Part shown: positions 2,826 to 64,000 of the stretch, in pieces
How positions within the stretch are numbered: the stretch's first letter is position 1
How the letters are laid out: each line of letters begins with the position of its first letter
Sequence record: PZ172995.1
Strand: one strand, 5' to 3'
Length of the DNA stretch: 64,000 bases
Origin: a phage
Made by a program: the position numbers and the translations under genes
Notes under the pieces: generated by a model
Told to the model about the DNA's origin: nothing
Databases searched by the model: none
Seen by the model: only the letters and a program-made list of their open reading frames with translations

Positions 2826-3224
2826 ATGAAAACAGAAGCTAGAGTAATTAATGGTAAGAAAGTAAATATCGTTCTGCTTGGGGCAAGAGATGGTATTAAG
2901 ATGTCTATGAAGCTGGGTAAAATTGTTGTTCCAACCTTTGCACAGATGCTGTCAAGCCTGACTGATAAAGATAAGAAAGAAGCTCCAATGGTTCCATTTA
3001 AAGAACTTGTTGAAGCTTGTTTTGACAGAATTGAAGAAATTAACCTTGAAGAAATGGCTACCCTGTTATTTCAAGGGGCAACTGTTGATGACTTCCCACT
3101 TAATATTGATACATACTTCCAAGCAAACTATGGTGAATTTATTGATTACTTAGCATTTGCGCTGGAGGCAAACTTCGGAAGTTTTTTCGAAGCAAGCATT
3201 TTCAAAAGCCTAACTTCTCAGTAA
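2826..3224 (+). CDS. tail assembly chaperone (G-like)
   Basis: 132 aa directly upstream of tape measure; contains slippery heptamer near 3' end. Confidence 0.5.
   Translation: MKTEARVINGKKVNIVLLGARDGIKMSMKLGKIVVPTFAQMLSSLTDKDKKEAPMVPFKELVEACFDRIEEINLEEMATLLFQGATVDDFPLNIDTYFQANYGEFIDYLAFALEANFGSFFEASIFKSLTSQ
3182..3188 (+). other. candidate -1 programmed ribosomal frameshift site (T TTT TTC)
   Basis: Heptamer in 0 frame of 2826..3224 (codons agt ttt ttc); -1 frame is open from here into ORF 3227..3466 with no stop. Confidence 0.45.
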
Positions 3225-56471: not shown

Positions 56472-56678
56472 ATGCTTTACAGTCGTGAATTGATGGTTAC
56501 AACTAACGTTAACACAAAGGTAAAACGTTTTTATATGCAAGTGTGCGGCGCATGGCGTAGAATATCAGAAGCTGACTATTGCAACTATGTAGAGACGGCT
56601 ATTAATTCTAATTGCTACCTTACAATAAACACTAAGAAGTTTACAAGACAGACAGCAATTTACTACTACGATAAATAA
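56472..56678 (+). CDS. small early protein
   Basis: Start set at MLYSRE... after RBS CTGGAGAATCAAAATG (ORF-track frame 56424..56678). Confidence 0.45.
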   Translation: MLYSRELMVTTNVNTKVKRFYMQVCGAWRRISEADYCNYVETAINSNCYLTINTKKFTRQTAIYYYDK

Positions 56679-56679
56679 A

Positions 56680-56769
56680 AAAGTACTTTACAAGGGGCTT
56701 AAAAGCTGATATCTTAAGCCCCAGATAAAGAGCTTTACTAAATTAACCCTTAAACTAGGAGATTCAAAA
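56680..56769 (+). promoter_or_regulatory. early intergenic cassette type 1 (stem-loop + AGATAAAGAGCTTTAC + SD)
   Basis: AGTACTTTACA, hairpin GGGGCTTAAAAGCTGATATCTTAAGCCCC (56694-56722), AGATAAAGAGCTTTAC, CCTTAAACTAGGAGATTCAAAAATG. Confidence 0.6.
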
Positions 56770-57150
56770 ATGGCTTATCGTGCACCGAAATTCATCAACA
56801 AAGACAACTTCCGCAACGCACTGGAGAAGTCACTTGGTGAAAATTTTAAAGGTAACATTATCGTTGTTCACGTATTCAATTTTAAGTATGATGTAAACGG
56901 GAATAGAATCAACCATTACACAGCAACCATGTTAGATGGTACGCTATCAAGTGAAAAAGCTGTACTGAATGCACTTGCAGGACGTGGTAAAAACCTGATA
57001 AGATGCGATAAGAGACGTTATCAGGGTGGCGCATATGGTTATGATGATGCTGTTTATCATCTTGAAAATATGGGCTATTCAGTGGAAAAAGCTGGAGTGT
57101 CTCAAATAATCGGCAGTGACGGCTATGTGACAATTTTCAAAATTAACTAA
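56770..57150 (+). CDS. small early protein
   Basis: 126 aa, preceded by conserved AGGAGATTCAAAAATG. Confidence 0.5.
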   Translation: MAYRAPKFINKDNFRNALEKSLGENFKGNIIVVHVFNFKYDVNGNRINHYTATMLDGTLSSEKAVLNALAGRGKNLIRCDKRRYQGGAYGYDDAVYHLENMGYSVEKAGVSQIIGSDGYVTIFKIN

Positions 57151-57151
57151 T

Positions 57152-57238
57152 AAAGTACTTTACAGGGGGCTTATAGTTCGATAAAGTAAGCCCCAGATAA
57201 AGAGCTTTACCACTAAATCCTAAATTGGAGATTCAAAA
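57152..57238 (+). promoter_or_regulatory. early intergenic cassette type 1
   Basis: Hairpin GGGGGCTTAT...GTAAGCCCC (~57166-57194) + AGATAAAGAGCTTTACCACTAAATCCTAAATTGGAGATTCAAAAATG. Confidence 0.6.
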
Positions 57239-57529
57239 ATGGCTATTATTAAAAACGTTGTAATTCCTGCAAAAACTCGTGATGACGCTCGCATCATGGC
57301 GAAAAAGTTAGGCGGGAAAGTGGTTGACAACGGAAAACAAACTGCTGTAAGGTGGAACGTGAAGGCGGATAAACAAATGAATTTAAAAAATTCACCAATA
57401 AACCTTTTTACATGTGTAAACACTATCGGGAAAACGAATGTATACACTAAAAAGGCATATATCAGACGCATCGCCATGACGTCACCTATTCGGACAATGA
57501 GAAGTCATGCAAAGCTGAAAATTAAGTAA
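57239..57529 (+). CDS. small early protein
   Basis: 96 aa after conserved SD context. Confidence 0.5.
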   Translation: MAIIKNVVIPAKTRDDARIMAKKLGGKVVDNGKQTAVRWNVKADKQMNLKNSPINLFTCVNTIGKTNVYTKKAYIRRIAMTSPIRTMRSHAKLKIK

Positions 57530-57530
57530 T

Positions 57531-57619
57531 AGAGTACTTTACAGGGGGCTTAAAAGCTGATATCTTAAGCCCCAGATAAAGAGCTTTACCACTCAATCCT
57601 TAAACTAGGAGATTCAAAA
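57531..57619 (+). promoter_or_regulatory. early intergenic cassette type 1
   Basis: Hairpin GGGGGCTTAAAAGCTGATATCTTAAGCCCC (57545-57573), near-identical to copy at 56694. Confidence 0.6.
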
Positions 57620-58132
57620 ATGAAAACTGTAGACGCTACCTTTGAAGTTGTAAAAGAAAAATTTTCCATCATTTACGAAGCTGTCAATTGCTACGAAGCA
57701 AGCCATAATCTTGATAATTGGAAGTTTACAGATGACCATCAAGGCGGTGTGACTATTAAAAACCCCAACTGTCAGCGTAATGGATTTAAATATGCAATTC
57801 CTTTACATTACAGCCTTAAACAGCTTTCAATTGACTATGCAAAACAAGGCCGGGAAAATCCATCGAAAGAGGCTTACATCAGCTTACAGAAAGAACTAGA
57901 AAGAGATTTAGAGGCTTCAGAATATAACATCGCCGCGAAAGTTGTAGATGCAAACGGTAGCACGGTTTTAGAGAGTTTTTATATTGGTTATGCTTTCGAT
58001 TGGTGCTACAGTGACGGCGATGATTTAGATGACAGACTAAAAGAGGAAGTGAACAACGCAGACGCAGAATCTGAAGTATTAGAACGCTTGGAAGCATTAA
58101 AAGATTCAGTGATGAATATCTTTAAGAACTAA
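57620..58132 (+). CDS. small early acidic protein
   Basis: 170 aa, D/E-rich C-terminal half. Confidence 0.5.
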   Translation: MKTVDATFEVVKEKFSIIYEAVNCYEASHNLDNWKFTDDHQGGVTIKNPNCQRNGFKYAIPLHYSLKQLSIDYAKQGRENPSKEAYISLQKELERDLEASEYNIAAKVVDANGSTVLESFYIGYAFDWCYSDGDDLDDRLKEEVNNADAESEVLERLEALKDSVMNIFKN

Positions 58133-58133
58133 A

Positions 58134-58223
58134 TAGACCTCTTTACACGGGGCTAACAAGCGGATATGATAGCCCCAGATAAAGAGATTTATCAAATTAA
58201 CCCTTAAACTAGGAGATTCAAAA
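58134..58223 (+). promoter_or_regulatory. early intergenic cassette type 1 (variant)
   Basis: Hairpin GGGGCTAACAAGCGGATATGATAGCCCC (~58149-58176) + AGATAAAGAGATTTATC + CCTTAAACTAGGAGATTCAAAAATG. Confidence 0.55.
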
Positions 58224-58520
58224 ATGAAATTATCAAATAAAGTTAGGGAAAACCTTAGCAAATTACTCAACAAAATTGATTTTATAGAGACATCAAGGAA
58301 TAGTCATGATGTTATGGAATGGTTACACGGCAAAATAAAAGGCCGTCGTGTAGTGATTTGCTTATGGAATAGTTGCAGGGAGTATAAAAAGCCTGTATTG
58401 CAAATTAATGTTTATGATGATACTTTTAAAAGTCCTGTAAAGTCTAAAAGCGATTTATTAGAATCCTATGAGATAACTGTAAATGGCAAAGTATCACGTA
58501 AAGAGGAAACACCATGTTAA
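58224..58520 (+). CDS. small early protein
   Basis: 98 aa after conserved SD context. Confidence 0.5.
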   Translation: MKLSNKVRENLSKLLNKIDFIETSRNSHDVMEWLHGKIKGRRVVICLWNSCREYKKPVLQINVYDDTFKSPVKSKSDLLESYEITVNGKVSRKEETPC

Positions 58521-58846
58521 TGACTGGTATCACTGCAATCATTGCCATTTTCGCGCTATATAAGGCATATAAAGCCTATAATCTAGCAAATAAGGCAATC
58601 ACACAGCAAGTTAGCAATAACCTTGTAGAGAGCTTTCTAGGGCGTTTAAGTGATGAGCAAATAAAGCGGCTAGAGATGAGCTTCAGATATAAAGCGAAAA
58701 CCTATCAGATAAGTGACATCTTCAAAGATGATTTCCAGTTAGTTGATGATTATAATTCTCTGATAAATGCTTTAAACATCAGTGACTTGAAAGACTATCA
58801 CGCTGTAATTGTTCAAGAATTGAGCAAACGAAAACAAAGTGTTTGA
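58514..58846 (+). CDS. small early membrane protein
   Basis: 110 aa; N-terminal hydrophobic segment (MLMTGITAIIAIFALY); stop overlaps TTGACA of next cassette. Confidence 0.45.
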   Translation: MLMTGITAIIAIFALYKAYKAYNLANKAITQQVSNNLVESFLGRLSDEQIKRLEMSFRYKAKTYQISDIFKDDFQLVDDYNSLINALNISDLKDYHAVIVQELSKRKQSV

Positions 58847-58937
58847 CACTGATTTTTAGATAGGTTAAATTACACATCAACGGGGAGGGAATGACCTTCC
58901 CCACTAAATAAAGTCCTTAAACTAGGAGATTCTAAAA
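58843..58937 (+). promoter_or_regulatory. early intergenic cassette type 2 (TTGACA-N17-TAAATT promoter + 5' stem-loop + SD)
   Basis: TTGACA 58843-58848, TAAATT 58866-58871, hairpin GGGGAGGGAATGACCTTCCCC (~58881-58902), SD AGGAGATTCTAAAAATG. Confidence 0.6.
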
Positions 58938-59096
58938 ATGTTTTGTGCAGGTGATAAAGTTGTCTGGAATGATATAGATGACGGTTTATGTACGAAAGTT
59001 GTTGTTATCTTAGAAATTGATTATATCACTGGTGTTGCAACTGTAGCAGATAATGATATAATCTTTGATGTCTTAATTAGTGAACTGTCAAAATAA
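58938..59096 (+). CDS. small early protein (52 aa), not in supplied ORF track
   Basis: ATG after conserved cassette SD; translation MFCAGDKVVWNDIDDGLCTK... Confidence 0.4.
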   Translation: MFCAGDKVVWNDIDDGLCTKVVVILEIDYITGVATVADNDIIFDVLISELSK

Positions 59097-59121
59097 AGTC
59101 CTTAAACTAGGAGATTCAAAA

Positions 59122-59394
59122 ATGTACACTACTAACAACGGTCGCACTTTAAATGTAACCCTACGCCACTATGTGAACGGTGTAATGCACTTCGAGGATT
59201 TACAAGCTGAACAACATATATTGGATTGGCAACTTGCAGGACTCCAAAAAACTGCTACCGGATACGGGAAAAAGATTCCAACTAGCTGGAAAGTATACTA
59301 CGAAGGCCGTTTGCGTAGAATTTATCAAGATGTATGCGGCAATAGCGCATCAAGTTACATCATAGTAAAAGGCAAAAAGCTGCATTTAGCATAA
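59122..59394 (+). CDS. small early protein
   Basis: Start set at MYTTNNGRT... after AGGAGATTCAAAAATG (ORF-track frame 59080..59394 begins upstream with GTG). Confidence 0.45.
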   Translation: MYTTNNGRTLNVTLRHYVNGVMHFEDLQAEQHILDWQLAGLQKTATGYGKKIPTSWKVYYEGRLRRIYQDVCGNSASSYIIVKGKKLHLA

Positions 59395-59395
59395 A

Positions 59396-59479
59396 GTACT
59401 TTACAAGGGGCTTATAAATCTGTACAGTAAGCCCCAGATAAAGAGCTTTACCACTAAATCCTAAATTGGAGATTCAAAA
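59396..59479 (+). promoter_or_regulatory. early intergenic cassette type 1
   Basis: Hairpin GGGGCTTATAAATCTGTACAGTAAGCCCC (59407-59435) + AGATAAAGAGCTTTACCACTAAATCCTAAATTGGAGATTCAAAAATG. Confidence 0.6.
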
Positions 59480-59884
59480 ATGGCTATTAATAATCGTGAG
59501 TTATCTATCTTAAAAGCACGTTTGACCGTTAACCGGATTAATGTTATCACATCAGCAGCACCGGATGAAACACTGCAAAACATTATTGGGAAGATTCAAA
59601 GTGTTATCTTAGACGTTGAAAGCGTAAAAAACTCATTGGCTGACGTTGCAGCCGGTATCACGCTAGACGGTGCACAACATGAGATGGCTGACATGTTAGG
59701 CAAATCAAAGGTAATGAATAAAGAATTAGACTTGAAAATGTTTCGATTTGCTGTTAAAGTGTGGCTATCCGTCGAGTATGACGCTAATTTTGCAATCGCT
59801 GATTTCTTTGCCACTTGGTTACAACGTAACTTAACAAATCATGATTTCCGTGATGTCTGTGATGCAATCTACGCAGAACTTTAA
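59480..59884 (+). CDS. small early protein
   Basis: 134 aa after conserved SD context. Confidence 0.5.
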   Translation: MAINNRELSILKARLTVNRINVITSAAPDETLQNIIGKIQSVILDVESVKNSLADVAAGITLDGAQHEMADMLGKSKVMNKELDLKMFRFAVKVWLSVEYDANFAIADFFATWLQRNLTNHDFRDVCDAIYAEL

Positions 59885-59891
59885 AAAGATG

Positions 59892-59984
59892 TTGACACTG
59901 ATTTTTAGATAGATTAAATTACTCATCAACGGGGAGGCAATAACCTCCCTACTAAATAAAGTCCTTAAACTAGGAGATTCTAAA
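59892..59984 (+). promoter_or_regulatory. early intergenic cassette type 2
   Basis: TTGACA 59892-59897, TAAATT 59915-59920, hairpin GGGGAGGCAATAACCTCCC (~59931-59949); near-identical to cassette at 58843. Confidence 0.6.
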
Positions 59985-60182
59985 ATGGCTATTATTAACG
60001 GCTTAACCATTGAAACAACACACATCAAAGATATCAAAGTTGGTGATGTAGTCCTTTCCCACGGCGTAGAAAAAACTGTCACTGCAAAGGATATCAAAGA
60101 GGATTCTTTCATGGGTAGAACTCTCTTCGGTGATTCTTATTGCTTAGGTTATCTTGCAGTTTTAAAAGTTGTCAAAAATTAA
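59985..60182 (+). CDS. small early protein
   Basis: 65 aa after conserved SD. Confidence 0.45.
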   Translation: MAIINGLTIETTHIKDIKVGDVVLSHGVEKTVTAKDIKEDSFMGRTLFGDSYCLGYLAVLKVVKN

Positions 60183-60183
60183 G

Positions 60184-60274
60184 TAATAAAGTACTTTACA
60201 AGGGGCTTAAAAAGTTGGTATCTTAAGCCCCAGATAAAGAGCTTTACACAGTCCTTAAACTAGGAGATTCAAAA
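60184..60274 (+). promoter_or_regulatory. early intergenic cassette type 1
   Basis: Hairpin GGGGCTTAAAAAGTTGGTATCTTAAGCCCC (60203-60231) + AGATAAAGAGCTTTACAC + CCTTAAACTAGGAGATTCAAAAATG. Confidence 0.6.
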
Positions 60275-60817
60275 ATGAAATGCTTTCACGGTACTACTCA
60301 AGAAAACTTCACCAACCTGATTAATAACGGTGATAAACCATCAGGCGCATGGAATTGTTCGGATATGGATGGCAATTTTTACGTTTATCCAGAAAATAAA
60401 ATCTATGGCGACGATGAGGAAGAAATAATCTCTGAAGGCATTCAACAAGCTTTAGGCAATGCCACTATAACGGCAGCTTTTCAGATGAAAACTCAAAACA
60501 TTGTTATCTTGGAACTTGATATTCCAGAGGATGAGTTGAATGATGATTATTCTTGTGATAATATGTCGAGCGTGGCAAGTTTTACAGAGTATTTCGATAT
60601 AAGCTGGATTAAAAAGGTTTACATCACTGAATTTAATGCTATGTTTTCGCCTTTTTGTCTCCCTTCACTGGATAACCCAAATTTAAACTATATTGACGAG
60701 TCTCTGGAACTTCTCGCTAAAAGTGTTCAACAATCAGACAGTATTCAGGTTTTTTGTGACATCATGGATACACTAACAGGAAACATCATAGAAAGTGATT
60801 TGAAGAGCTTTTTATAA
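60275..60817 (+). CDS. early protein
   Basis: 180 aa, acidic; no motif recognised. Confidence 0.5.
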   Translation: MKCFHGTTQENFTNLINNGDKPSGAWNCSDMDGNFYVYPENKIYGDDEEEIISEGIQQALGNATITAAFQMKTQNIVILELDIPEDELNDDYSCDNMSSVASFTEYFDISWIKKVYITEFNAMFSPFCLPSLDNPNLNYIDESLELLAKSVQQSDSIQVFCDIMDTLTGNIIESDLKSFL

Positions 60818-60883
60818 TAACCTATACAATCACCTTATAAATACTGATTAGCCCCTCACAGGGGCTTTTAGGAGGCCTAAATC

Positions 60884-61117
60884 ATGCTTACAACCATTTA
60901 TCTCATCCTTTCTATTTGTAATGGTCATTCATGCGATTTTAAAGGGCTTGAGGAGTTTACAGGGAGTAAAGAAAATGCCGTTCAAGTGTGCCAGATAGCA
61001 AGGCAAGACTATCCCGCCAGTGATGATATACAATGTTACTTTAAGACAGAAGATAATGACGGCGTTTATTTTGATAGCGTAGATGGTCAATATGAAATTA
61101 TCATTGAAAAAGACTAG
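60884..61117 (+). CDS. small early protein with N-terminal hydrophobic segment
   Basis: 77 aa; MLTTIYLILSICNGHSC... signal-like N-terminus. Confidence 0.4.
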   Translation: MLTTIYLILSICNGHSCDFKGLEEFTGSKENAVQVCQIARQDYPASDDIQCYFKTEDNDGVYFDSVDGQYEIIIEKD

Positions 61118-61129
61118 ACAAGCCTGATA

Positions 61130-61206
61130 AAAGTCTGTAAATTGTCAATCAACGGGAGGTAATAACCTCCCCACTAAGTAAAGTCCTTAAACTAGGAGAT
61201 TCAAAA
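61130..61206 (+). promoter_or_regulatory. early intergenic cassette type 2 (variant lacking clear TTGACA)
   Basis: GTCTGTAAATTGTCAATCAACGGGAGGTAATAACCTCCCCACTAAGTAAAGTCCTTAAACTAGGAGATTCAAAAATG; hairpin ~61154-61172. Confidence 0.55.
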
Positions 61207-61548
61207 ATGGCTTATGTAACCGTAATTACCGATAAAGATGGTTCATCTTGGTCAACTCAAGTAAGTGATAAGATGTCACCTATGCAGTGCCTAAAATACT
61301 TTGAGCAATGGAACAAAGGTGAAGAAACAAGCCCCTTCCAAGTGATGCAGATTATCCATACAGATAACGAAGGGAATAAAACTGTTTTGAATAGTGAGTA
61401 CTATGCAACCAGATTCGAAACGAGAAGTAAAGCAATGAAACTCTTACGTGAATCCGGTTACTCTCATATTGCCTCACTAATCTGGGATGACCTGCTAAAA
61501 AGTCAGCGTATCAGCTATGTAAAACCTGAAAAAACATTCATCAGTTAA
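61207..61548 (+). CDS. small early protein
   Basis: 113 aa after conserved SD. Confidence 0.5.
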   Translation: MAYVTVITDKDGSSWSTQVSDKMSPMQCLKYFEQWNKGEETSPFQVMQIIHTDNEGNKTVLNSEYYATRFETRSKAMKLLRESGYSHIASLIWDDLLKSQRISYVKPEKTFIS

Positions 61549-61699
61549 TCAATAACTTACAAAAAACTTTTAAAAAAGTGTTGACAATCCCTCTTGACAT
61601 TGGTAACTTTGTTCGAGGGGGTTTATCTAAAAGGGATTAACTTAAAAGATTCTTTATAGATAAACTTAAAAAATTGCTTGCAATCAGCTATCAAAACAA

Positions 61700-61769
61700 G
61701 TAAATTACTAATCAACGGGAGGTAATGACCTCCCCACTAAGTAAAGTCCTTAAACTAGGAGATTCAAAA
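61700..61769 (+). promoter_or_regulatory. early intergenic cassette type 2
   Basis: TAAATTACTAATCAACGGGAGGTAATGACCTCCCC (hairpin ~61717-61735) + ACTAAGTAAAGTCCTTAAACTAGGAGATTCAAAAATG; TTGACA boxes at ~61572-61600 upstream. Confidence 0.55.
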
Positions 61770-62300
61770 ATGAACAAGTTCAAAGCTATCAATTACATTC
61801 GTTCGAGTAGCATCATGTCAAAACCTGTTAAAGATACCTATGAATTTCGTTGCAATGGGGTGCATTTTGCAACCATCACCAAATCAGAAAACGGAGCTTA
61901 TTACATCCATCGCCGTAATGTTGCAACCGTTGTTGTCTCTCATTTTATGCAAGCTGTCGCGGAACTTCTCCCGATGTTTTTAGGGCTTTACTTGGATGAG
62001 TGTAAAAACGTTCACAATCACGTTAAAAACCTTTTAAACAGCTATAAAATGGCTTATGAACGTTCTATCAAGTCATTGAACAAGTTTTACAACGCACCTG
62101 AAAATACTGTGTCAATAGCCTATGGTGTAAGCGGTGAAATGGTAAACTTATCCAATGTGGAAGAAATCAAGCTGCATGATTTACGCCCTAACGGTTACGC
62201 TAAAACCATCGGTGAAGGTTTAACTTTCAATATCAAGAACTTAGAAAAAACTTTAAAAGATATTGAAAAAGATATTGACGAGACAATCAAAAGTCTGTAA
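61770..62300 (+). CDS. early protein
   Basis: Start set at MNKFKAIN... after cassette SD (ORF-track frame 61725..62300). Confidence 0.5.
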   Translation: MNKFKAINYIRSSSIMSKPVKDTYEFRCNGVHFATITKSENGAYYIHRRNVATVVVSHFMQAVAELLPMFLGLYLDECKNVHNHVKNLLNSYKMAYERSIKSLNKFYNAPENTVSIAYGVSGEMVNLSNVEEIKLHDLRPNGYAKTIGEGLTFNIKNLEKTLKDIEKDIDETIKSL

Positions 62301-62366
62301 ATTGTCAATCAACGGGGAGGGAATGACCTTCCCCACTAAACAAAGTCCTAAACTGGAGTTATCAAG
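62301..62366 (+). promoter_or_regulatory. early intergenic cassette type 2
   Basis: GTCTGTAAATTGTCAATCAACGGGGAGGGAATGACCTTCCCC (hairpin ~62314-62334) + ACTAAACAAAGTCCTAAACTGGAGTTATCAAGATG. Confidence 0.55.
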
Positions 62367-62630
62367 ATGGAAAACGTCGAACTGACCACACTTTTACAAA
62401 TTGCAACCGACAAAGAGGATGTAGCATTATTCCACCGTATCGAAAGTGATTTGTTCAATGGTGAAATCATTAAAGAATCTTACGAAGTGGTCGGATTCAA
62501 AGATGGTAAATCATTTGGATTCTTTGACCTCGACAAAGGCAACGCTATTACAAAGTATGATGTTTTATCTTGTGAGATTCTGACAAAATACAACGAAAAA
62601 AGACTTGCAACATACGCCAACATGCAGTAA
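62367..62630 (+). CDS. small early protein
   Basis: 87 aa after cassette. Confidence 0.5.
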   Translation: MENVELTTLLQIATDKEDVALFHRIESDLFNGEIIKESYEVVGFKDGKSFGFFDLDKGNAITKYDVLSCEILTKYNEKRLATYANMQ

Positions 62631-62695
62631 ATTACTAATCAACGGGAGGGATAACCTCCCTACTAAGTAAAGTCCTTAAACTAGGAGATTCTAAA
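62631..62695 (+). promoter_or_regulatory. early intergenic cassette type 2
   Basis: TAAATTACTAATCAACGGGAGGGATAACCTCCC (hairpin ~62644-62660) + TACTAAGTAAAGTCCTTAAACTAGGAGATTCTAAAATG. Confidence 0.55.
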
Positions 62696-62944
62696 ATGGC
62701 AACTATCCGCGCAATTGTAAATTCTTATGGCTGCTACACTCTGGACGTTAAATTTGATATAGGTGGGACCGATGAGTGTTTCGAACTGGTGAAAACAGTC
62801 ATTAAACAAGTTATCCCAGACTATAACCCTACTGATGACTTCTGGAAAGATGCAGTAAAAGAGGCGTTGAACGATGAATATCATTACCATTATTGGGGTG
62901 ATTTGATTGTCTCCCTGTACTACAATAAACAAGGTTGCAACTAA
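62696..62944 (+). CDS. small early protein
   Basis: 82 aa; last ORF before ~1 kb non-coding repeat region. Confidence 0.5.
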   Translation: MATIRAIVNSYGCYTLDVKFDIGGTDECFELVKTVIKQVIPDYNPTDDFWKDAVKEALNDEYHYHYWGDLIVSLYYNKQGCN

Positions 62945-62982
62945 TCGACGCAACGGGGCTAAATAGCCCCAGATACCTTTAT

Positions 62983-63006
62983 AGCCCCTTAAATGGGGCT
63001 TTTTTA
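62983..63006 (+). terminator. rho-independent terminator
   Basis: AGCCCC-TTAAAT-GGGGCT followed by TTTTTT; preceded by second hairpin GGGGCTAAATAGCCCC at ~62955-62970. Confidence 0.65.
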
Positions 63007-63049
63007 CGTCTTAACAAATCCCTATACAACCCTTTTCCTTTCCTTTCCA

Positions 63050-63700
63050 GAATCTATCCCATACCTTAAAAGCAATAACTCTATAGCTTACTCTATAGCC
63101 CCTTATCAAATCAACTTAAATATAAGCCCATAACCCGAAAGGGAAGGGCAACCATTTAAACGCTCTATAAAGCCCTATAACAGCCTTATCAACCTAACTT
63201 AAGGGATTGCATTACCTCACCCTTAAAAGCCCTTTATAAAGCTTCCCAGAGCCTTAAAAGAATCTTATAAGGGTGTAAGCTTTATTATCTCGTTAGCTAT
63301 CTTGTGAATGGTTAAACAACCCCTTGATAGTAACTGAAAAGTATGTTATAGGGGCTATAAAGTTACTTTGAAGTAGTTTAAAAGTTACTTAAAAGTTACG
63401 TAAATGCTAGCCCCCTTAACATTTTCTTAACAATTTCTTAACAATCCCTACATAGTTATGCTTTTAAGGTACTTGTTAGCAACTTGTTAGCCCCTTGTTA
63501 AATCTCTGTTAAAACCACGTAAAAGCCTTGTAAGAGCCTTTGACATAGCCTATAAAGCCTCTGTAAAGCCCTATAAATAGCTTTCTGTATAGTTGGGGTG
63601 TAATTACTAGGAAGAGACTAAAAAGAGCTTATAAGGAGCTATAAAGGGCTTTTAAGAGGGCTATTTAAAGGGTCACTAAGAGAGAAAGGGAACGATAAGA
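63050..63700. repeat. dispersed short direct repeats of CTATAAAG(C/G)C family in gene-free region
   Basis: About ten copies or variants (CTCTATAAAGCCCTATAA, CTTTATAAAGC, GGCTATAAAGTTAC, CCTATAAAGCCTCTGTAAAGCCCTATAAATAGC, GAGCTATAAAGGGC ...). Confidence 0.6.
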
Positions 63701-63995
63701 AAAGAGATAGTGACCATGTTAATAGCTTGTTAAAAAGATTAAACACTTGTTAGAAACTTGTTAATTATCTTAACAAAATAACTCTTTAAAATTAACTTGT
63801 TAGCTCTTGTTAGTCATCTGTTAAGACACTGTAAAGCCTATGTATCAACTGTTAAGAAACTGTTAAGTTCTTGTTAAAACTGTTAAGAATCTGTTAAGAC
63901 CTCTGAAGAGATGTTAAGAGGTTGTAAGAACTGTTAAGAGATTGTTAATGATATTTTAAAATTCTGCAAAGGGGATGTTACAGGGCTGTTAAGGG
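63420..63995. repeat. iteron-like array of CTTGTTA(A/G) / CTGTTAAG repeats, ~11-13 bp periodicity
   Basis: Two inverted copies (TTCTTAACAA x2, ~63428-63450), four copies ~63471-63510, and at least 15 copies from ~63725 to 63995 (e.g. CAACTGTTAAGAAACTGTTAAGTTCTTGTTAAAACTGTTAAGAATCTGTTAAGAC). Confidence 0.7.
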
Positions 63996-64000
63996 CTACC

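Follow-up and report, generated by a model that had tools for sequence, protein, structure and literature searches.

It is not fully understood, even for T7, how phages with short exact direct terminal repeats (DTRs) recognize the repeat boundaries on replicated concatemers and restore the second copy. In T7, concatemers are formed through the terminal repeats. In lambda and SPP1, which represent cos or headful systems, the sites for the small terminase subunit (the cosB R sites and pacL/pacR, respectively) comprise 3–7 boxes over ~100–200 bp, and the plasmid centromere R1 parC consists of ten 11-bp iterons bound by ParR. The T7 terminal repeat is flanked by arrays of short repeats, reportedly named SRL and SRR by Dunn and Studier in 1983, which have never been assigned a function. 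Here we describe an array region in a stretch of phage DNA of 64,000 nucleotides (sequence record PZ172995.1), referred to below as the window. An initial annotation had noted a cluster of repeats related to CTATAAAG(C/G)C at positions 63050–63700. Judging from relatives with mapped genome ends, the DNA that contains this cluster is the right end of the genome, including one copy of a DTR. It consists of 10–12-bp units in non-coding DNA, and we favour, with a confidence that is about even, the reading that the cluster belongs to a concatemer-junction element acting in cis, through which genome ends are made and packaged.

Location of the cluster at the genome end

Positions 62900–64000 of the window matched 256 phage records, 229 of which covered at least 80% of the query, with identities of 77–97%. 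The matching records were nearly all Felix O1-like myoviruses (Felixounavirus, Mooglevirus and Suspvirus), and on the basis of these matches the window derives from a Felix O1-like myovirus of the genus Felixounavirus. In the complete genomes of relatives, the counterpart of this DNA is a junction of ~1.6 kb without genes, situated between a block of small early-type genes on the plus strand and a block of genes on the minus strand. The records of AYO145A and Mordin carry annotated intrinsic terminators on both sides of this gap, pointing inward, and the left-hand terminator is present at the same place in the window (62983–63005). The window holds the first kilobase or so of the junction, and the right flank is located at the other end of the linear genome.

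Several records of relatives start or stop inside the gap and hold gap DNA twice. In vB_EcoM_D4, whose ends were set by PhageTerm (PMC11737134), the first 581 bp are the same as the last 581 bp and align to window 63410–64000. ZX4221, which comes from a different laboratory, carries a repeat of 591 bp that shares its first and last bases with that of D4 (GCCCCCTTAAC and GGGCTACC, respectively). The copies at both record ends are 100% identical in each of the two phages, and display 92–93% identity to window 63410–64000. In UAB_69, a DTR is annotated at the equivalent place with a shift of 2 nt at each end. The final base of the window corresponds to the last DTR base of D4 and ZX4221. As end-mapped relatives start at the equivalent of 63410 and end at the equivalent of 64000, the last base of the window should be the right-hand physical end of the genome, and the cluster at 63050–63700 comprises 360 bp of unique DNA ahead of the DTR and the first 290 bp of the DTR itself.

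A DTR in Felixounavirus is already known. That of UAB_Phi87 (608 bp) was demonstrated by Bal31 digestion and run-off sequencing (PMC4837284), and one of 613 bp was predicted in Ro111lw (PMC6454146). The published DTR of UAB_Phi87 could not be placed on the window because the orientation of the GenBank record (87,603 bp) does not correspond to the physical ends, the genome in the paper being 87,669 bp including the 608-bp DTR. On the other hand, the surrounding array architecture and its conservation are undescribed in the searchable literature; the papers found that name Felixounavirus DTRs give lengths only and do not describe the arrays. A few GenBank records carry automatic repeat_region features.

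Some details of the boundaries differ among records. The 2-nt disagreement concerns both DTR ends, which read GCCCCC...CTACC in D4 and ZX4221 and TAGCCCCC...CTACCAA in UAB_69 and the Erwinia phage M7 (window 63408–63411, and 63999–64000 plus 2 nt). The discrepancy may stem from the use of different mapping methods, or the cut sites may have a short overhang. In the record of Citrobacter phage KMM2, the ends overlap by just 64 bp, inside the TGTTAAG array; we rejected this as a DTR, as it appears to be an assembly overlap. We also considered a hairpin across the left edge of the DTR (GGGGCTA...TAGCCCC; z −2.0 in DNA folding). Its left arm is absent in 4 of 20 relatives, including both representatives of Mooglevirus, and the hairpin is therefore not a general feature.

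The description of the region as gene-free, regulatory or structural DNA in the initial annotation agrees with our results. The last credible open reading frame (ORF), on the plus strand, stops at 62944, and the period-3 power determined by Fourier analysis was 0.47 in the region against a window mean of 5.19, indicating non-coding DNA. The conservation described below also supports a regulatory or structural nature. A hidden small protein gene was rejected, as period 3 is absent and relatives differ by indels of 1, 10 and 11 bp. Small coding sequences (CDSs) are annotated within the junction or DTR in D4 (3013–3177), UAB_69 (2473–2768) and M7 (636–845; all locus coordinates). They overlap the repeat arrays and their reading frames are not conserved, and are likely annotation artefacts. 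With respect to the genes beside the region, six ORFs of the window and three of the relative Shy were examined. None of the proteins had a Pfam match, and only PHROG families of unknown function were hit, so that a DNA-binding protein encoded beside the region was rejected. The replisome genes in the window are T7-like, with a family A polymerase and a primase-helicase of the Toprim plus DnaB type.

Unit structure, conservation and polarity

The sequence from ~63066 to 64000 can be read as consecutive units of 10–12 bp, each consisting of an A/T core and a spacer. The cores include TTAAAAG, CTATAG, TATAAAG, TTATAAG, TGTAAAG, TGTTAG and TGTTAAG. The strongest Fourier components were found at 10.1–11.3 bp, with a peak power in the 10–11.5-bp band of 7.4 against a background of 2.3±0.7. 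TNTWAR cores were present at 46 per kb in the region and 6.4 per kb elsewhere, and 47% of the spacings between neighbouring cores were 10 or 11 bp, compared to 2% elsewhere. Tandem Repeats Finder likewise reported a patchwork of arrays with a period of 10–12. The features of the region are as follows, with coordinates in the window.

62955–63005, plus strand: two stem-loops after the last plus-strand gene, forming the left border of the gene-free junction
62955–62970, plus strand: first stem-loop of the left border, GGGGCTAAATAGCCCC
62983–63005, plus strand: second stem-loop of the left border, intrinsic terminator AGCCCCTTAAATGGGGCT with T-run
63006–63409, unstranded: unique left flank of the DTR, with C-rich-spaced A/T-core units mostly 10–12 bp apart (period 11.1)
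63121–63151, unstranded: invariant 31-bp block TATAAGCCCATAACCCGAAAGGGAAGGGCAA with small hairpin CCCGAAAGGG, outside the periodic units
63165–63174, plus strand: exact copy 1 of CTATAAAGCC, followed by CTATAACAGCC; the 11-bp tandem pair spans 63165–63189
63222–63238, unstranded: left arm of a perfect 17-nt inverted repeat, CTTAAAAGCCCTTTATA, with its right arm at 63640–63656
63359–63404, plus strand: about four 11-bp units of the AAAGTTAC type abutting the left DTR boundary, one unit being present or absent among relatives
63410–64000, unstranded: right-hand copy of the DTR, 591 bp, placed by homology, with GCCCCCTTAAC as its first and GGGCTACC as its last bases
63415–63445, minus strand: three 11-bp units TTCTTAACAAT, reverse-complement copies of TTGTTAAGAA, just inside the left DTR edge; the most conserved stretch (0.98)
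63463–63540, plus strand: 11-bp array of TTTAAGG, TTGTTAGC (twice), TTGTTAA, TGTTAAA, TAAAAGCC and TAAGAGCC, bridging the two repeat families of the initial annotation
63549–63581, plus strand: tandem set of exact copy 2 (63550–63559), CTGTAAAGCC (63561–63570) and CTATAAATAGC (63571–63581)
63590–63650, unstranded: switch from C-rich to G-rich spacers and of the polarity of the A/T-core units, holding the only strong predicted static bend of the region
63612–63672, minus strand: G-rich-spaced units GCTTATAAGGA, GCTATAAAGGG, CTTTTAAGAGGG and CTATTTAAAGGG, reverse-complement versions of left-flank units
63717–63997, plus strand: TGTTA(A/G) array (the other family of the initial annotation), 16 cores with 9–12-bp spacing up to the right genome end

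The unit types of the left flank include CTCTATAG, CTTAAAAGCC, CTATAAAGCC and CTTATAAGGG. Inside the left DTR boundary, three inverted TTCTTAACAA units are present, and TGTTAAG units then extend to the right end. In the left flank and the first third of the DTR, the predominant units are those with C-rich spacers; they make up the CTATAAAGCC family, which had been regarded as a second, separate repeat family. This distinction did not hold. Intermediates such as CTGTAAAGCC connect it with the TGTTAAG family, and the two grade into a single patchwork of 10–12 bp.

The frequency of the motif was then quantified. Exact CTATAAAG(C/G)C occurs twice in the 64-kb window (63165 and 63550; 0.2 expected). 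When one mismatch was allowed, 19 copies were found in the window against 6.3 expected, four of them in 63050–63700 and six in 62975–63838; the stretch at 63612–63672 includes one of these one-mismatch copies at 63639–63648. With up to two mismatches on both strands, 63050–63700 contains 15 copies. The copy density outside the region predicts 1.7, and dinucleotide-shuffled versions of the region gave an expectation of 3.3 (maximum 9 in 300 shuffles). The local enrichment behind the earlier count of about ten copies or near-copies is therefore real, but a number of this order is reached only with the loose definition. The tandem set quoted there, CCTATAAAGCCTCTGTAAAGCCCTATAAATAGC at 63549–63581, is present. 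The generalized pattern CTNWWAAG was about threefold over chance throughout the window, and not just at the terminus (200 against 64±8). Many of these copies are palindromic CTTAAAAG/CTTTTAAG or CTTTAAAG sequences, which are counted on both strands.

The initial annotation had also pointed out that a related motif, AGATAAAGAGC, recurs in early-gene cassettes. Five exact copies are indeed present at 56.7–60.2 kb, but in a different context: AGATAAAGAGC is a fixed component of a hairpin-containing cassette upstream of early genes, and has only ATAAAG in common with the CTATAAAGCC motif. The cassettes, found at 56640–62700 upstream of each small plus-strand ORF, are of two reiterated types. One consists of CTTTACA, a hairpin GGGGCTTAAAAG..CTTAAGCCCC, and AGATAAAGAGC (the five exact copies), and the other (61700–62700) of CAACGGGAGG..CCTCCCC and AAAGTCCTTAAACTAGGAG directly ahead of ATG. 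In Felix O1, 57-bp direct repeats of the first cassette type have been reported (PMC3185647).

The initial annotation had taken the motif for a possible promoter specific to the phage, or for a site bound by a transcription factor, with reference to the T4-late-like TATAAATA. The cores are A/T-rich and TATA-like, one exact TATAAATA is present at 63572–63579, and AGATAAAGAGC recurs upstream of early genes as described above. However, there is no gene downstream, and the terminators on both sides face inward. Mapping of the near-copies relative to gene starts revealed that 10 of the 13 outside the terminal region lie within coding DNA, and only one precedes a gene start on the same strand by 100 nt or less. 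TATAAATA was not enriched, with four copies in 64 kb against 3.6 expected by chance, and the T that creates the copy at 63572–63579 is confined to the window and its closest relatives. The decamer is itself variable among relatives, and its core shows no better conservation than the spacers. A search of 63000–64000 for clusters of sigma-70 promoters (−35/−10 hexamers, 16–18-bp spacing) gave matches of 9 of 12 positions at most, with no downstream ORF, and the overall count was within 2 sd of shuffles. As there was no Rfam match at E≤1 and RNA folding was unremarkable (z-scores of −1.3 and −1.5), the region has no obvious transcript product, and a small RNA or riboswitch was also rejected. Promoter function of either the T4-late or the sigma-70 type is rejected on these grounds, and we consider a role of the motif in transcription to be highly improbable. 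The more general suggestion of a factor-binding element is kept for genome-end processing, where binding is putative, and not for transcription.

We next turn to conservation. Twenty relatives were aligned, and the identity figures given here represent identity to the window across the same 14 phages. All non-coding DNA at 63006–64000 displayed an identity of 0.89, and 63050–63300 an identity of 0.93. The left DTR edge (63410–63460) reached 0.98, with 8 of the 14 loci having been fetched by an exact 18-mer at 63404–63421 that overlaps this edge. In the adjacent gene of 82 codons, the corresponding values were 0.71 at codon position 3 and 0.90–0.92 at positions 1 and 2. The non-coding junction is conserved like codon positions 1 and 2 of neighbouring genes, a pattern that shows strong purifying selection. 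Long blocks of the left flank are unchanged in Mooglevirus and Suspvirus despite an overall identity of ~76–78%. They include two CTCTATAG units, CTTAAAAGCCCTTTATA, AGAGCCTTAAAAGAATCTTATAAGGG, and the 31-bp block with hairpin CCCGAAAGGG. The last, TATAAGCCCATAACCCGAAAGGGAAGGGCAA, is identical across Felixounavirus, Mooglevirus and Suspvirus and has no 11-bp unit pattern, making it a candidate for a specific recognition site. In the TGTTA(A/G) units, conservation was 0.97–1.00 in the cores and 0.84–0.93 in the spacers, which looks like a footprint. Individual copies of the other motif vary: the 63165 copy reads CTATAACGCT in Mooglevirus and Suspvirus, the 63639 copy reads CTATAGAG in most Felixounaviruses, and positions 3–4 of copy 2 (63550–63559) differ among relatives.

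These data bear on the possibility that the arrays are a neutral satellite without a sequence-specific role, produced in a non-coding end region where such changes are tolerated, either by replication slippage or because terminal repeats annealed out of register. The lengths of indels among relatives peak at 10–11 bp (13 events) and 21–23 bp (10 events), which indicates that units are gained or lost whole. This, together with the many degenerate variants, which resemble duplication followed by drift, and the tolerance of the region towards small palindromic insertions, would be expected of a satellite. On the contrary, an identity of 0.89–0.98 against 0.71 at codon position 3 in the same phages, blocks that are invariant across three genera, and TGTTA cores that are better conserved than their spacers would not. 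In addition, Kolesnikvirus retains the plan of the junction though its sequence has turned over. Because of this level of conservation, we regard a neutral satellite as quite improbable.

The palindromic insertions themselves are 23–50 bp in length and variably present among relatives near 62990–63050, 63310–63325, 63680 and 63795. Examples are TATGAGATAGGAATCTATCGAATCCTA in UAB_69 and nataliec, and the ATTCGATAGAATCTATC type in Shy; TAGGGATTGGTAACAATACCAAT of Andreotti recurs in reverse complement at another place in UAB_69. The insertions resemble very small mobile elements with palindromic sequences.

The units change polarity along the junction. The GC skew of the plus strand was −0.4 to −0.5 at 62950–63250, where the spacers are C-rich, and +0.24 to +0.47 from ~63590 onward, where they are G-rich. 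In Shy, a relative with 97% identity, the flank beyond the DTR is still G-rich, with a skew of +0.3 to +0.56. The G-rich-spaced GCTATAAAGGG-like units are the reverse complement of units in the left flank, and a perfect 17-nt inverted repeat pairs 63222–63238 with 63640–63656. The left and right flanks share 56 7-mers in reverse complement and 28 in direct orientation, and 24 and 11 8-mers, respectively. The reverse-complement sharing is 2.7–3 sd above shuffles. As the flanks share reverse-complement content, the arrays in both DTR copies, when read inward, have partly the same polarity.

The polarity switch raises the possibility of a replication origin, in which the arrays would be iterons, the skew switch at ~63590 would mark bidirectional initiation, and an AT-rich stretch past the DTR would serve as an unwinding element. 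Phased short repeats together with an abrupt change from negative to positive skew on the plus strand are in line with this, and Shy contains a 100-bp stretch of 22% GC located 50–150 bp past the right DTR end. In T7, the secondary origins phiOL and phiOR adjoin the terminal arrays, and the phiOL and phiOR promoters are annotated at 405 and 39229. An origin would also be compatible with a packaging element, the two not being exclusive. However, no initiator was recognized among the flanking genes with Pfam and PHROG. T7-type replisomes start at promoter-dependent origins, and no convincing promoter is present in the region. Furthermore, the change in skew, which covers no more than a few hundred bp, is simply a consequence of motif orientation, and the exact coincidence with mapped genome ends favours end processing. 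An origin is, in our view, unlikely.

A putative element for forming genome ends

Taking into account the location and structure of the region, we infer that a protein binds to the units and that the region functions in end formation and packaging. The units, phased near the helical repeat, would be bound by a protein of the phage, which may be the small terminase subunit or some other factor that binds the junction. Bound protein may mark both DTR boundaries on replicated concatemers, and terminase would then cut at 63410 and 64000, with the repeat being duplicated during packaging as in T7-type short-DTR phages. The T7-like replisome in the window fits concatemer formation through terminal repeats. 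As for T7 itself, the concatemer junction along with an origin suffices for packaging according to Chung and Hinkle (1990), as cited in PMC13236587, and the specificity of packaging in T3/T7 lies within the terminal 5% of the genome (PMC3276506).

A number of points weigh against an end-forming and packaging element. The number of units is far above the need of a single terminase ring. As the window does not include the left genome end, the DTR boundaries rest on homology. Twelve of the 20 aligned loci (8 of the 14 behind the identity figures) were retrieved with the exact 18-mer at 63404–63421, and conservation is inflated by this retrieval at 63404–63421 only. In the CTATAAAGCC-type units, the core is no better conserved than the spacers; therefore, selection acts on larger blocks rather than on the decamer. 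No candidate for a binding protein was found among the flanking genes with Pfam and PHROG, and the terminase genes lie outside the window. A PhageMaP study of Bas63 covers genes only, with nothing intergenic for this locus. Finally, insertions at the T7 end loci are mostly tolerated, except at positions 142 and 162 (bioRxiv 10.1101/2024.10.10.617714), and the analogous arrays here may therefore be individually dispensable.

The arrays may otherwise serve the DNA ends in the virion or during entry. The units would then bind a phage or host protein for protection against exonucleases, anchor or pace the DNA at the portal, or form a special DNA shape. Arrays at both physical ends with partly the same polarity when read inward, and a period near the helical repeat, can be explained in this manner. 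On the other hand, nothing points to an end-binding factor, and the left flank (63006–63409) sits at least 590 bp from the end. A special shape is also not indicated: in an approximate wedge model, the predicted static curvature was near the window mean of 17 degrees across the region, with a single peak at 63600–63649. Intrinsic curvature was accordingly rejected as the reason for the ~10.5-bp phasing. We give a role of this kind only a small probability.

A more specific version of the end-forming element can be envisaged, in which the whole ~1.6-kb junction is a "terminus organiser". Its sites, ~150 in number, phased close to the helical repeat and of mirrored polarity to either side of the terminal repeat, would polymerize a dedicated phage protein into a nucleoprotein scaffold. 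By means of this scaffold, opposite strands would be nicked at two opposed positions separated by exactly 591 bp. The flank motif, of the CTATAAAG type in Felixounavirus and TTCTAAG in Kolesnikvirus, would be a specificity code co-evolving with that protein. This is a speculative and rather improbable model; if true, it would provide a concrete, testable mechanism for terminal-repeat duplication in short-DTR phages.

Felix O1-type phages are widely used in typing and biocontrol of Salmonella and E. coli, and hundreds of genomes are available. The junction represents ~2% of the genome and encodes no protein, yet is conserved like protein-coding positions. With its modular plan of boundary sequences, invariant blocks, phased units and mirrored flanks, it should be a good system for finding the junction-binding factor and a minimal packaging signal. 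The ends at 63410 and 64000 can help to correct the orientation of assemblies and to remove spurious CDSs from the junction. In phage engineering, the junction may be avoided, or included in packaging-competent phagemids.

Comparison with described systems

The 160-bp terminal repeat of T7 (NC_001604) contains three CCTAAAG units. At the left end, the repeat is followed by an array with a 13-bp period at 175–340, comprising eight CCTAAAG units and ATAAAG variants, and at the right end, CCTAAAG, CCTAAGG and CATAAAG units precede the repeat. Both phages have a short exact terminal repeat with arrays of A/T cores ending in AAAG (CCTAAAG in T7, often CCTAAAGCC) within the repeat and on its inner sides. 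In both, the arrays are non-coding and the replisome is T7-like. With a reiterated motif inside the repeat and on its inner sides, in non-coding DNA, the present region belongs among T7-type terminal short-repeat arrays, and the CCTAAAG arrays of T7 are its closest analogue.

The differences from T7 are also clear. The arrays of T7 have periods of 13 bp (SRL) and ~11.3 bp (SRR) and extend ~170–240 bp each, whereas here a period of 10–12 bp extends over ~1.6 kb, and the units are much more numerous and occur in two polarities. The T7 junction has the promoters A0, phiOL and phiOR and depends on T7 RNA polymerase, while the junction here is enclosed by convergent terminators. T7 is a podovirus of the Autographiviridae and the present phage a myovirus of the Ounavirinae, and the families are unrelated. 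Shared descent of the arrays is not indicated, as no alignable similarity was found past short strings (TAAAGCC and TGTTACAG) and both period and extent differ. The resemblance is one of architecture only. TAAAGCC and TGTTACAG occur in T7 (41–49, 213–235 and 161–172) and in the window (63549–63570 and 63975–63985). The pause signal of T7 RNA polymerase, ATCTGTT, was considered and rejected; its two copies in the DTR are merely part of TGTTAAG units. ATCTGTT is at chance level genome-wide, and its presence, like the sharing of the short strings, is probably a coincidence.

In cosB and pac, as possibly here, several short phased sites flanking a cleavage point could let an oligomeric DNA-binding protein position a nuclease. 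The present region exceeds those systems about tenfold in the number of units, and its two putative cut sites are separated by 591 bp. R1 parC resembles it in the 11-bp head-to-tail units, which are suited to cooperative coating of one helix face. Unlike parC, the arrays here occupy the genome termini of a lytic phage, partition genes are absent, and the units show far greater degeneracy.

A deeper comparison is with Erwinia phage M7 (Kolesnikvirus), in which similarity to the window is confined to ~75% identity over ~90 bp of the TGTTAAG array. M7 also has a gene-free junction, of ~1.4 kb, and a 444-bp DTR that starts with TAGCC. Its right DTR boundary reads ..CCACTAA followed by GTAGATATACA, compared to ..CTACCAA followed by GCAGATATACA here. 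Inverted TTAACA units are found near the left DTR edge and TGTTAAG arrays toward the right edge. The left flank differs: its array consists of TTCTAAG units, whereas CTATAAAG-type units are found here. A plan that is kept while the flank motif is specific to the genus is what would be expected of sites co-evolving with a phage-encoded binding protein.

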